NCBI GenBank assembly: GCA_963848295.1
Contig: CAWKDB010000010.1
Location: 512,001-576,000 of the forward strand
Origin: an uncultured delta proteobacterium
GTDB taxonomy: Bacteria; Myxococcota_A; Polyangia; Haliangiales; Haliangiaceae
Length of the DNA stretch: 64,000 nucleotides
Direction: 5' to 3'
Position 1 is the stretch's first letter. Each line of letters opens with the position of its first letter. Of this stretch, positions 48,735-60,587 are shown in pieces. The position numbers and the translations under genes are program-made. The notes under the pieces were generated by a model. It saw only the letters and a program-made list of their open reading frames with translations, ran no database searches and was not told where the DNA came from.

Positions 48735-49216
48735 ATGACCACGCTCGGCGACTGGCTCGCACGGGCGCCGTTCTCGCTCGCGATGTCGAGCGGGTTCTTT
48801 TCGTTCTACGCGCACACCGGGATGTTGACGTCGTTAACGTCGCGCGGGCTCGCACCGACGCTCGTCGCCGGCTCGAGCGCCGGGGCTGCGTGCCGGTGAT
48901 GTTCCATCCGGTGCGGATCGGCCGGCGCCTGTACTGGGACGGCGGCATCCTCGATCGGCCGGGCCTGGCCGGCGTGCCGCCCGGCGAGCGCGTGTTGATG
49001 CATCACATCGCGAGCAAGTCGCCGTGGCGCGCCGAGCTCCCGATCCCGCGGCGCGCCGGCATGGTCACGCTCGTCGTCGACGGCTTGCCGCGCTCCGGGC
49101 CGTTCAAGCTCGACGAAGGCCGCCGCGCGCTCGCGCTCGCCCGCGAGGCGACGCAGCGCGCTCTCGATACCGCGATCCCGGCGGACGGCATCGTGCGGCT
49201 CGGCGCAGGCGCCTAG
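48735..49216 (+). pseudogene. Patatin-like phospholipase copy 1 with a 271-bp internal deletion
   Basis: SSGFF..AHTG and GSSAG, then a jump to the CVPVMF..YWDGG region; bases equivalent to 54854-55124 of copy 2 are missing. Confidence 0.85.
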
Positions 49217-51180
49217 GCCGCGATCTTCCCGATCGCTTCGTACTCGATCCTAGCGGCGTACTCGAGATGGCACGATGAGATCGGCTCGCCGACGTCCGCC
49301 GCCATGAAAGCAGCGCGCAGCGCGGCGTTGCGAATGTATCCGCCGGACATCACGAACCGCCGGGCCAGCGACGGCAGATCCAAGTCGCGATCGACGGGCG
49401 CCAACGCCGGGATCACCACGCGCCACAGTCGAGCGCGTTCGGCTTCATCGGGAAGCTCGAACCGGAGGTGAAACGACAACCGCCGCTGAAACGCGGCATC
49501 GATCCCGCTCTCGTGGTTCGAGGTCAGCAGGCAGATCCCCGAGAATGACTCGAGCCGCTGAAGCAAGTAGTTCGTCTCGAGATTCGCGTAGCGGTCGTTG
49601 CTCGATTTCACCTCCGTGCGTTTGCCGAACAACGCGTCGGCTTCATCGAACAGTAGGATCGCGTGGCCGGCCTCGGCGACGTCGAACAACTCCGAGAGCC
49701 GGGCCTCGGTCTCGCCGATCCATTTCGAGACGACCTTCGACAGGTCGACCTGGTAGAGCTCGAGCCCGAGCTTGCGCGCGATCAGCGCGGCCACCATCGT
49801 CTTGCCGGTGCCCGGCGGGCCTGAAAACAGCGCCGTCACACCGAGACCGCGGCCGAGCTTCGCGCCGAACCCCCACTGCTCGTAAACGACGCCGCGTCGC
49901 TGGACGCGCGCGCACAGCTCGGCGATCTGCGCGAGCTGCGCTTCGGGCAGCACGATGTCGGCCCACACTTGCGTCGTATCGATCCGGCGCGCGAGATGAC
50001 CCAACCGGTCGTCCAGCGCGCTGCGGACGCCTGCTTCGATATGGGTCGGTTGGAGTGGCTGTCCCGCGGCGACCTGGCGAGCTATCACGGCGGCGCGGCA
50101 GACCAGACCGGCTGCGATCGGATAGCGGTTCGCGAGAAGCTCGGCATCGCCTTCGCTAGCTCCAGGGAGCACGCGGTGCCAGAGCGCGGCGCGTTGCACC
50201 GCGGTCGGCGGCAAGATCTCGACCACGGTGGCAGGCCGCCCCCAGCGCGGCGTCACCGGCAGTCGATTACACGTCGCGAGGATCGGCGAGTCGAGGTCGG
50301 CGGCGAACATCCGTCCGAGCAACTCGAAGCGCGAGGCGTCGGCGTCGACGATCAACGCGTCCAGGTTGCGGACCAACGGAGCGCGCCGTTGCAACTTGCA
50401 CTCGCGGACCAGCGCGCACAGTTGATCGCGGAACACTGGCAGCTCTCGAGACAAGCGCTTCGCGTCGATCTCGAGCAGCTCGAGGTTCGCGTCATGCGCG
50501 AGCGAAGTGAGGATCGTCGCGCGCCCGGTCGCGGCGGGCCCGAGCGCGATCACGACCGCGTCGGCCGGTCTGAGCGCTGCTCGCAGCTTGGTCGCCGACG
50601 ACTCGGCGACGGCGAGCTCTGCCATCCGCTTTGACGGCGCGGGGATTCGCGCGACCTCGGCGAGCGCCGGATCGATCGCGTCGTCGCCGTGCAGTAGCGC
50701 GAGCACACGCCGCGCGATCGCCCACGTCCACCGGCTCTCGTGCAGCTCGGCGGAACCGCCGTCGCTGCGTTCGATCAGCCCGAGCCGGCGCAGCGTGCCG
50801 GTCGCGGAAAGCTCGGACAGGGCGAGCCGACTCGGCCGATCGCCGTAGACGAACGCACGAATGAAATCGAGGGTCGGATCGACAGTTGCGGCGCCGGCGC
50901 GTGCGAAGAGCGCACGCGCTGCGCTATCGACCGCCAGCGCGGCCAGCAACCATACGACCTCGAGCTCGGTCGCCGTCAGGTCGAGACACGCGCGCAGCGT
51001 GTTCGTGCCGCATCGCGACGGGGCCGCGACACGCGTGGCGATCCGCACTTGCGTCGCGAGCAGTGCCTGAACGAGTGCGTCCGGCGGCGTCTCGGCGCGC
51101 AGGAAGTGACCGCGCAGCGCGAGGACTTGGCGGGCATTGTCGCAACGGTCGGCGAGCTCGTCGAGGAAGCCATCGGTCAT
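49213..51180 (-). CDS. AAA+ ATPase, Afp15/Pvc15 (eCIS-associated) type
   Basis: Degenerate first Walker A (GPAATGRAT); [73 protein letters not shown]. Confidence 0.88.
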
Positions 51181-51204
51181 GGCTCTGGTATCGACCACGC
51201 CTGG

Positions 51205-58245: not shown

Positions 58246-59198
58246 GGTCCGCCGCTGTTCTCGGCATCCTGATCGCCATCGGATGCTCGCATTCGGACGG
58301 GCGCGCGGCGCGACATCACGCGTTCGAAGTGCGTCACGCGCGTATTCAGCGCTTGGTGACGAGTTGTAGTCCGGCAGATCAGGCCTCGCTTGTCCTGATG
58401 GCCACCGGTCGGTTCGACTGGGGCGACGGCGTCGAGGAGGCTCCCGCGGAAACGACCCTCGACGACCCGCGAGTCGAACCCGATCAGCTGGCGGTGCGAT
58501 GTCACGCTACGCTCGTCCTCGCTAGTACGCCGATGACGACCTTGGGGCGGAACATTGGCGCGCTCGAAAAACGAGCGCAGGTGCTGTCAGACTCCAAGGT
58601 GCTCGAGGGGCTTCACGTGATGCTCCATGACGTAACGACCGGCTGTACCGGCAACTACGGTCGCGACGCGGTCGCACGGACGTTGTTCCCCAAGGATGCC
58701 GTCGAGGACGTCATCCTCATGAATCCGATCGTCCCCACACCGACCGGGTATGAAGACCTCGAGGCTGAATGGGCTCCGTTCCGCGAGGAGATCGAGCGCT
58801 ATCATCCGAGCCCTCGCGTTCGGCGTTTAGATGAGTCCGTCGCCGATCTTTCTCCGGCGTCATTCCAGAAGGTACTCGAGATGCTCGATCCCGCATATGT
58901 GTGGAACGATGGCAACCCTCCACCGACCGACGAAGAGCGCGCCGAGATCCAGAAACACGGCCTCGTCGCCATGCACTGGGCCTTGACGCTCGCAGAGGAT
59001 GCGGCGCCGCCCGACTTCGAGCCGGGTCGTACGTACTATGTACCCAACGACTGCGAGATCGCACTCTACAAAGCGATCAAGACCGGAGCCCTAGGTGACG
59101 CCATGAGGACCCGCACCAATTCGCGTCGGGACGAGGTCAGCGATCACATCGACGCGTACCTCGGCCTCTTGCACGCGTTCCGAAACCCGAGCCCGTAA
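58242..59198 (+). CDS. Lipoprotein, candidate immunity for 55531-58245
   Basis: GTGA overlap; VLGILIAIGC lipobox; no recognisable family. Confidence 0.7.
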   Translation: MRSAAVLGILIAIGCSHSDGRAARHHAFEVRHARIQRLVTSCSPADQASLVLMATGRFDWGDGVEEAPAETTLDDPRVEPDQLAVRCHATLVLASTPMTTLGRNIGALEKRAQVLSDSKVLEGLHVMLHDVTTGCTGNYGRDAVARTLFPKDAVEDVILMNPIVPTPTGYEDLEAEWAPFREEIERYHPSPRVRRLDESVADLSPASFQKVLEMLDPAYVWNDGNPPPTDEERAEIQKHGLVAMHWALTLAEDAAPPDFEPGRTYYVPNDCEIALYKAIKTGALGDAMRTRTNSRRDEVSDHIDAYLGLLHAFRNPSP

Positions 59199-60587
59199 CT
59201 ACGCCGGCTCGAGCTCGGCGCGCAGCGCCGCGACGACCCGGGCCGGCGCCTTGAACCGCACGCGCGTGCCATCGTCGTGATGCTCTTCCGCGAGCACGGT
59301 CGCGCGCTCGTGGATCGAGTGGATCACGCGCTGCGAAGCCCACGGCACGTCGAGCTCGGTCTCTTCGAGCGCGCCGGCGAATTGTTCGATCATCTTGTCG
59401 CGCAGCTTGGCGACGTCGGCCGGCGTCTTCGCCGACAGCTGGAGCGCGCCGGGATAGCGCTCGGCGAGCGCGGCGCGGCCGGCGGCATCGACGCGATCGA
59501 TCTTGTTGAGCAACAGCCAGGTCGGCATCTCGCGCGCGCCGAGCTCGCCGAGCACCTCGCGCGTGACCGCGAGCTGATCCGCGTGCGCGGGATCCGACGC
59601 GTCGACCAGGTGGAGGAGCAAGTCCGCGTCGCGCGCCTCGTCGAGCGTCGAGCGAAACGACGCGACGAGATCGTGCGGCAGCTTCTTGATGAAGCCGACG
59701 GTGTCGCTGACGAGGATCGGCGGCTCGGTCGGCGGCTGGAGCCGGCGCACGGTCGTGTCGAGGGTCGCGAACAGCTTGTCGGCGATGTAGACGTCGGTCG
59801 TGGTCAGCGCGCGCATCAGCGACGACTTGCCGGCGTTCGTGTAGCCGACGAGCGCGACGGTCGGCAGATCGCTGCGGCGGTTGCGCCGGATGTTCGCGCC
59901 GCCTTCGATCATCGCGAGCTCGTCGTTGAGCTCGGCGATCCGGTCGCGGATCCGCCGGCGATCGAGCTCGAGCGTGGTCTCGCCGGCGCCCTTGCCGCCG
60001 ACGCCGCCGCGCACGCGATCGCCACCGCCGCCGCTCTCGCGCAACCGTGGCGCGAGGTACTTGAGGCGCGCGATCTCGACTTGCAGGCGCGCCTCGCGGG
60101 TCTTGGCGTGACGCTGGAAGATCTCGAGGATCACCGACGTGCGATCGAGGACATCGGCGCCGGTCGCCTTCTCGAGGTTGCGCTGCTGGGTCGGCGACAG
60201 GTCGTGATCGACGAGCACGACCTTGGCCTTCGGCGCATCGGGCGCCGGGGCATCGGCGGCGGCGTCGTCGGCATCGTCGTCGTCGTCGTCGTCCGCGGGA
60301 TCGGCGGTCCCGGGCTTCTGGTACGTCGGCACGACGCCGGTGCCGCCGGTCCACTTCGCGAGCTCGACGAGCTTGCCTTCGCCGAGCACGAGCCCGGGGG
60401 CGAGCTTGGCGCGGCGTTGCGTCACGCGGCCGATCGGCTCGACCCCGAGGGTCTTCGCGAGCCGCTCGAGCTCTTCGATCGATGACCGCAGCTCGGCGTC
60501 ATCGACGCCGCGGGTCTGCACGGCGACGACCACCGCGCGCGGCCTCTCGCCGTCTCGGATCGTCAACCAGCTCGTGTCGTCGGCCAT
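59199..60587 (-). CDS. hflX: GTPase HflX
   Basis: LSPTQQRNLE, DRTSVILEIF..HAKTREARLQVE, GAGETTLELDRR, VGYTNAGKSS, LFATLDTT, DTVGF, NKID. Confidence 0.97.
   Translation of the reverse strand: MADDTSWLTIRDGERPRAVVVAVQTRGVDDAELRSSIEELERLAKTLGVEPIGRVTQRRAKLAPGLVLGEGKLVELAKWTGGTGVVPTYQKPGTADPADDDDDDDADDAAADAPAPDAPKAKVVLVDHDLSPTQQRNLEKATGADVLDRTSVILEIFQRHAKTREARLQVEIARLKYLAPRLRESGGGGDRVRGGVGGKGAGETTLELDRRRIRDRIAELNDELAMIEGGANIRRNRRSDLPTVALVGYTNAGKSSLMRALTTTDVYIADKLFATLDTTVRRLQPPTEPPILVSDTVGFIKKLPHDLVASFRSTLDEARDADLLLHLVDASDPAHADQLAVTREVLGELGAREMPTWLLLNKIDRVDAAGRAALAERYPGALQLSAKTPADVAKLRDKMIEQFAGALEETELDVPWASQRVIHSIHERATVLAEEHHDDGTRVRFKAPARVVAALRAELEPA

Follow-up and report, generated by a model that had tools for sequence, protein, structure and literature searches.

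The 64,000-nt window analysed here (the whole stretch of DNA presented above, G000:C10:512001-576000) comes from an uncultured bacterium of the Haliangiaceae and contains a doubled stretch in which a patatin gene and a convergent hflX gene each occur twice, with a different set of cargo genes between them. The source assembly, G000, comprises 7.78 Mb in 11 contigs with 68% GC and is 85% complete. The order of the genes is U (+), patatin (+), cassette A on the minus strand (an ATPase gene, an FGE-domain protein gene and effA), a partial hflX (hflX', -), a joint, a second patatin (patatin', +), cassette B on the plus strand (effB and a lipoprotein gene) and an intact hflX (-) (Table 1). This order and its coordinates agree with the first-pass annotation, which had been made from the DNA letters and their open reading frames, and so do the opposite orientation of the two cargos and their unrelatedness in DNA, no hit between them being returned by a self-BLAST of the window (E ≤ 1e-10). 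Patatin (PF01734) and hflX (TIGR03156, above cut-off) were each detected in two copies, and gene U matched no family above cut-off.

Table 1. Features of the doubled patatin-hflX stretch, with positions in the window.
Feature	Position	Strand	Remarks
Gene U, 493 aa	47237..48718	+	In the genus, the gene that usually converges on hflX; origin of the 18-nt stub at the joint
Patatin, copy 1	48735..49216	+	Frameshifted by an internal loss of 271 nt after 48886; its stop and that of the ATPase gene overlap
Cassette A gene 3, ATPase, 661 aa	49213..51198	-	Winged-helix domain (WHD) and tandem AAA ATPase, Afp15/Pvc15-like; likely cargo loader
Cassette A gene 2, FGE-domain protein	51205..51972	-	Conserved lipobox-like Cys; likely immunity lipoprotein
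Cassette A gene 1, effA, 557 aa	51969..53642	-	Putative effector; start 57 nt behind the hflX' stop
hflX'	53700..54719	-	3' 1020 nt only; 53988-54719 a mosaic, likely a polishing artefact
Joint	54720..54737	+	18-nt exact copy of 48200-48217 in gene U
Patatin, copy 2 (patatin')	54738..55454	+	Lacks the first 35 nt
Cassette B gene 1, effB, 904 aa	55531..58245	+	Putative effector
Cassette B gene 2, 318 aa	58242..59198	+	Lipobox-like N-terminus (by eye); likely immunity protein; stop abuts the hflX stop
hflX, intact	59199..60587	-	

The self-BLAST, which served as the repeat search, returned 100% identical repeats at 48770-48886/54737-54853 and 48885-49215/55123-55453, and a further repeat at 53695-54719/59194-60212 with 96.5% identity and 6 gaps. 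Repeats of 331 nt at 100% and of 1025 nt at 96.5% identity far exceed what chance would produce. Identity had been said to end at the patatin stop and to resume at the hflX stop; the left limit does lie at the patatin stop, with the exact end at 49215/55453 and a difference in the third base of the stop codon, and on the right the match begins again at 53695/59194, which is 5 nt beyond the hflX stop. Each cassette ends in a stop codon that overlaps, or lies directly against, that of the flank gene converging on it. The GC content at third codon positions is 0.69-0.80 in all four non-ATPase cargo genes, compared with 0.88-0.92 in the flanks, which is consistent with recent gain of the cargo.

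Features that had not been recorded before are that the first patatin copy is also broken, that the second lacks its start, that the joint is a copy of part of gene U, and that hflX' departs from the intact gene over part of its length. Patatin copy 1 has lost 271 nt internally and copy 2 its first 35 nt, the parts that they have in common being 100% identical; neither is intact, and the patatin of the sister species G104 (86-93% DNA identity to G000) is intact. Within the whole 7.78-Mb assembly the 18-mer of the joint is present only at 54720-54737 and at 48200-48217. It represents this strain's own U sequence, unlike all 23 rows from other genomes, and behind it the sequence skips about 550 nt into patatin. 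The joint shares 0-1 nt at its ends, and the three joints overall share 0-2 nt. Given patatin duplicates that are complementary in their damage, the tandem is probably not biological. A symmetric flank length of ~1 kb was considered and dropped after the 271-nt deletion was counted. A target-site duplication was also rejected: the same 5 letters stand at both ends of cassette B and not of cassette A, and the empty site in G104 differs.

The partial hflX' is the same as intact hflX over its last ~290 nt, and carries 29-30 substitutions and six 1-nt insertions, with no deletion, in 53988-54719. Both copies were compared with the hflX of 50 genus genomes, a selected and not random sample taken from the 80 with a match; here and below, relatives were compared by one genome per species. 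Twenty-one of 29 hflX' substitutions fall on the 60 of 726 sites at which the majority base of these relatives is not that of the intact copy, an enrichment with P ~ 6e-10 when variable sites only are counted (the relatives are not independent), and at 18 of the 29 changes the hflX' base is commoner among the relatives than the intact base. As a control, 8 of 19 G104 differences lie at such sites, compared with 9 of 12 for hflX' over the same overlap. At informative sites G104 agrees with the intact copy against hflX' by 14:1. Since G104 sides with intact hflX while more distant relatives lean to hflX' (42 of 49 are nearer to it than to the intact copy), hflX' is unlikely to be a real sister allele.

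The insertions point in the same direction. Five of the six inserted bases are an allele found at ≥20% among relatives at the adjacent position (background 0.13, P ~ 2e-4), and two alleles of a variable site in a row suggest a consensus drawn over reads of several species; insertions of this kind may serve as a sequence-only sign of mixed-read polishing. In 119 kb of G000 aligned to G104 (28 alignments, 20 contigs), 28 isolated +1 insertions were counted and one -1, clustered in two regions, and the +1 error is therefore general in the assembly. In hflX' six +1 insertions are seen where 0.17 would be expected in 730 nt, and intact hflX has none, an asymmetry that fits few own-strain reads on the hflX' side. 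The frameshifts of the G000 assembly are likely to be polishing errors. Non-homopolymer +1 clusters relative to G104 were noted on C2 at ~472-477 kb (11) and on C11 at ~625-635 kb (7), the coordinates being approximate.

The site itself was compared across relatives. In G104 the order is U, a 335-aa lipoprotein-like gene, intact patatin, 19 nt and hflX, an empty state, and no close copy of either cargo was found in that genome. The 335-aa gene (L019:1293-2300), which has no Pfam match and is missing from the window, makes this interval variable at a second position. In G042 (L227:1854-6120) a WHD-AAA ATPase is followed by a 766-aa protein with eCIS_core and Peptidase_M91 domains that ends 3 nt from the hflX stop; judged by its domains, this is an independent effector-type cassette at the same hflX end. 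Sequencing run X1, available as Logan contigs only, was the sole holder of the stretch (share 0.22) and may be the source sample; runs X2 and X3 hold almost none of the stretch's words, and the cover there comes from other organisms. Four mismatch-free X1 pieces are listed for cassette A, at a depth of 2.3-4, and two for cassette B, at 2.8-2.9; two more lie in intact hflX, and the X1 pieces of both cassettes are 100% identical to the assembly. Just 5' of patatin, at 48725-48726, two adjacent bases of an X1 contig with a depth of 2.5 are not those of the assembly, which is either a strain difference or an error.

Alternative contents are found at one site across species (G104, G000/X1, G042). 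The variable slot proposed by the first-pass annotation is supported by the empty site in G104, the presence of both cargos in X1 and the separate cassette at the G042 hflX stop. Its description of the slot as flanked by core genes holds for hflX, which is near-universal (80 of 90 genus genomes), and fails for patatin: among the 58 relatives with both genes, one has them on the same contig (patatin counts rest on an in-frame patatin translation); owing to patatin, two core flanks in conserved adjacency were not found. A scan of metagenomes with the patatin protein gave 48 loci, none of which exceeds 81% identity or shows hflX or U, and no locus was returned when metagenome contigs were scanned for an exact motif of the clade's patatin end. 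Because patatin so rarely shares the hflX contig, it appears to be a recent filler, with the 3' end of hflX as the lasting anchor. The commonest arrangement is a U homologue ending ≤500 nt from hflX, seen in 31 of the 80 hflX-bearing genomes of the genus, or 29 of 78 without the two unpublished genomes G010 and G057 (U-hflX and patatin-hflX adjacencies were counted by eye). Neighbours at the 50 hflX loci vary, and include U, beta-helix genes and, in one, an IS200-like gene. The slot looks real and of an ordinary kind.

We hypothesize that cassettes first land between the tightly packed convergent stops behind hflX, and that strains would then swap alleles by homologous recombination in the flanks; swappability between conspecific strains is what we infer from the data at hand. 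No integrase gene and no shared target duplication were seen at the cassettes, and promoter and terminator scans of the cassettes remained at chance level. If promoterless, the cassettes would be expressed by read-through from the flank, A lying 57 nt behind hflX and B 76 nt behind patatin.

Homologues of effA were identified in 20 of 137 family genomes, and 17 effA loci (16 from relatives and a second G000 locus) were fetched out of 27 non-self matches. An ATPase gene lies downstream in 16 of the 17, the FGE gene directly follows effA in 13 and is doubled in 2, and none of the loci lies beside hflX or patatin. Three other proteins in the protein databases match effA, while a scan of genome contigs with effA returned one 21-residue chance match. 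The ESM Atlas gave no usable hit for the cargo, and in PHROGs and NCBIfam the cargo remained unnamed except for the ATPase and, weakly, the FGE protein. The structural model of effA (predicted local distance difference test score 80.9, from 19 sequences; the first 37 aa of low confidence) consists of an ASH/PapD-like immunoglobulin (Ig) domain, a long helical bundle, one helix of which (250-284) is hydrophobic, and a C-terminus of alpha/beta type. The Ig domain matched PapD/ASH-like folds (Z 11.4, root-mean-square deviation 1.9, 100 aligned); no other clear fold match was found for effA, its helical and C-terminal parts not having been searched separately. On this model one might guess that effA is a membrane-active toxin. 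Its FGE partner (PF03781, E 1e-11) has a lipobox-like Cys that is invariant in 16 of 16 aligned sequences. It combines the features of FGE-type immunity proteins, namely the FGE domain, a signal with a conserved Cys and a position directly behind the partner gene, and is likely to be the immunity protein.

The cassette A ATPase (PF22977 and PF00004) matches the ATPase of pADAP at 34% over 75% of the length (E 2e-63), the gene for which lies between tape-measure and DUF4255 genes; from this position we take it to be Afp15. The ATPases beside effA form one supported clade (99/95) together with one further G000 paralogue, in a tree of 22 rows whose long outer branches are unsure. Walker A and B are intact only in the second AAA domain (GTGK, DEAD), the motifs being defined as in the accessible part of PMC11495950, where Pvc15 is described as loading cargo through N-terminal signals, with D2 as the active domain. 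By analogy, cassette A's own Afp15/Pvc15-like ATPase would load its cargo into the particle.

The layout of effB is a polymorphic N-terminal domain of ~330 aa, a HYDIN/ASH Ig domain and a family-restricted C-terminal half. Its first 330 aa have a match in 29 of 90 genus genomes, mostly as the heads of 1100-2300-aa proteins that are followed by a small overlapping gene. Among 12 such homologues scanned, 4 carry eCIS_core; the C-terminus resembles adenosine deaminase in one and, weakly, a zeta toxin in one. Of 137 genomes, 6 have the C-terminal half of effB and 4 the lipoprotein, the two being adjacent in 3, and the lipoprotein gene follows effB-like C-halves at 3 other loci. In the protein databases effB (among the matches listed) and its lipoprotein match only the window's own protein. 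Common descent of the ASH-like Ig domains of effA and effB was considered and rejected, as the profile comparison was not significant (probability 0.3%, E 0.22). The effB N-terminal domain also occurs, inverted and at 67% DNA identity, in a large polymorphic-toxin-like gene at 39188-45953 (-), whose frame breaks near 45390 and 45133 are possibly assembly errors. Behind that gene stand a 176-aa partner and an orphan module. The module consists of an internal stub of 461 nt at 99% identity, a C-terminus at 59% and a partner gene at 34%.

An extracellular contractile injection system (eCIS)-type locus lies in G000 on C2 at ~912-934 kb, with two sheath genes, Pvc16 and, by eye, tube-, spike- and baseplate-like genes; Pvc16 is present in 84 of 91 genus genomes. 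G000 further encodes five eCIS_core domains and eight dispersed Afp15-like ATPase paralogues, and no VipB match was found in it (85% complete). There is no ATPase match in the C2 locus, and the cassette A ATPase, on C10, lies outside that operon. DUF4157 (eCIS_core) is given as a mark of eCIS toxins in the portions available of PMC8213781 and PMC11297309; it is absent from effA, effB and their partners, and present in the four effB-N homologues above and in the G042 cassette. On this family context, from which the label of effector that the first-pass annotation had given the cargos is also drawn, effA and effB are likely to be cargo of the genome's eCIS. The cassettes would load in trans into the structural eCIS, and the lipoproteins would shield the producer or its kin from the cargo. 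Immunity genes are often missing beside antibacterial eCIS toxins, as far as the accessible text of PMC8213781 goes. No published description of these cassettes was found among the literature entries searched, and supplementary lists may hold such families; on that search the cargo families appear undescribed.

The first-pass annotation had offered a real duplication or the joining of two strain haplotypes by the assembler. We favour the latter: that the tandem is a misassembly joining two co-occurring strain alleles seems fairly probable, a call made from sequence signatures and not from raw long reads. Two distinct variable regions lie between duplicated conserved flanks, and unsupported indels and mixed alleles stand near the joint. 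The combined explanation, in which misassembled alleles of a variable site are each a likely effector-immunity cassette for an eCIS, is in our estimate marginally better than even. Several observations weigh against it. X1 contigs leave the joint untouched, with no cover of 54301-55980 at ≥94%, other stretches being uncovered too. The +1 error is also found in single-copy genes, which indicates a bad consensus and not a false duplication per se. X1 depth, patchy and GC-dependent, is 1.68 on A, 0.86 on B and 1.12 on the flanks, so that the cassettes are not halved; in bins with GC<0.69 the values are 1.86, 1.03 and 2.04, which do not measure copy number. Ku is encoded in G000 (C11, split in two frames), which makes blunt natural joints possible. 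A alone or B alone was seen in no second assembly of the species among the genomes compared, an effector-type cassette stands at the hflX stop in only 1 of 50 loci examined, and two strains with intact genes do not account well for the 271 nt missing from the first patatin copy. Family scans, PHROGs, NCBIfam, the ESM Atlas and, for effA, fold comparison revealed no toxin domain in either effA or effB.

A real tandem is doubtful. A strain with one allele would have recombined in the second and kept both, as a merodiploid, by an illegitimate joint from the middle of hflX into gene U; the deletions would be true decay or short-repeat collapse, and only the letters of hflX' mis-polished. X1 depth is similar on both cassettes and the flanks. 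A real tandem would give both hflX copies equal own-read support, yet hflX' has 35 consensus-type changes and the intact copy no insertions, and G104 backs intact hflX at 14 of 15 informative sites. While the +1 error type in single-copy genes, the presence of Ku and the own-strain U sequence of the 18-nt stub all suit a tandem, and two immunity genes might be useful to keep, it needs the loss of both patatin copies, three joints almost without microhomology, and 100% identity in what is left of the repeats.

It is unlikely, too, that the slot is real and effA and effB are accessory or surface proteins of a particle, or cassette A an ATPase-based defence module. The lack of a detected toxin domain would fit this, as would a PapD/ASH-like Ig domain as the sole clear fold match of effA, a weak match of the ATPase to anti-phage IteA (96.5 bits, cut-off 510) and the part that FGE domains play in other conflict systems (PMC7159879, in the portion available); the pairing of a large with a small gene, the duplicated FGE genes, the variable C-termini behind a fixed N-terminus, the eCIS_core fusions and the same-family ATPase beside an eCIS_core protein in G042 speak against it. 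Improbable is a real tandem of stacked rival eCIS cargo alleles, in which stand-alone cassettes would form a family-wide class and feed one eCIS in trans, each of the A type supplying a membrane-active effector with an Ig domain, a lipoprotein of FGE type for immunity and its own Pvc15-like loader ATPase; if true, it would mean strain discrimination built on an eCIS rather than a type VI secretion system (T6SS). Least credible, and very improbable, is a cassette A from another locus or species that was drawn in through conserved hflX and patatin and is no allele of this site: hflX' is chimeric with foreign alleles and homologues lay at unrelated loci in 17 of 17 fetched, but the patatin (331 nt) and hflX (~290 nt) sequences that adjoin the cassette are identical to the own strain where the sister differs by 7-12%, the ATPase stop overlaps the patatin stop exactly, and an X1 contig is mismatch-free over 53475-53717, 18 nt into hflX (below the 31-letter bridging rule).

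Other repeats and elements were observed in the window and elsewhere in the assembly. At 19100-35230 stand about ten near-identical beta-helix lipoprotein genes in ~1.35-kb units, 90-99% identical, with internal 66-nt repeats and several units frameshifted. This is by far the largest local repeat cluster of the assembly, and may be an over-expanded assembly; relatives have fewer and more diverged beta-helix copies near hflX. A transposase and an ATP-binding helper, recognised from their translations, form a pair at 36872-39273 (+) that is presumably IS21-like. Direct repeats of 0.9-1.8 kb (94-99%, copies 2.5-3.6 kb apart) lie on C10 of G000 at 1983375-1990347, 2457468-2462919 and 4144698-4150059, and could be orphan modules or similar assembly joins.

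If the tandem is an artefact, it warns against taking duplicated or frameshifted genes of the G000 assembly for biological features. What remains of lasting interest is the cargo, in which an unknown protein, an FGE lipoprotein and an Afp15/Pvc15-like ATPase form a module of three genes that recurs at scattered loci in the genus. This module would provide a testable case of eCIS loader ATPases acting in trans with their own cargo, and of eCIS immunity genes.

Four known systems may be compared. Long-read assemblers concatenate subpopulation-specific regions between conserved loci, and introduce unsupported indels too, according to the available part of 10.1101/2025.04.22.649783; the likeness includes two variable regions in one contig, shared flanks, a partial duplication of the flanks and unsupported indels, and the difference is that the error was diagnosed there by read clipping and here by sequence signatures. 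Hotspots of horizontal gene transfer without mobile elements are renewed by homologous recombination in flanking core genes, as stated in the accessible portion of Oliveira et al. 2017 (PMC5635113). The locus resembles them in its variable cargo between two chromosomal genes, its integrase-free cassettes and its empty and filled states; unlike there, one flank (patatin) is itself a recent arrival, and our comparison is across species only. FGE-domain proteins are known as Tsi3-like immunity proteins of T6SS effector pairs, as far as the consulted part of 10.1101/2021.05.21.445229 extends. As in that system, the FGE gene stands directly behind a gene of obscure function and is sometimes duplicated, whereas G000 lacks a VipB match, effA matches no known family, and the likeness to Tsi3 is that of the FGE domain. 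Finally, unlike Afp15/Pvc15 as described in the part of PMC11495950 available, the ATPase here lies outside the structural operon and beside putative cargo; it resembles them in its N domain and tandem AAA domains with an active second domain, in its homology to the pADAP ATPase, and in standing beside an effA whose N-terminus looks disordered.

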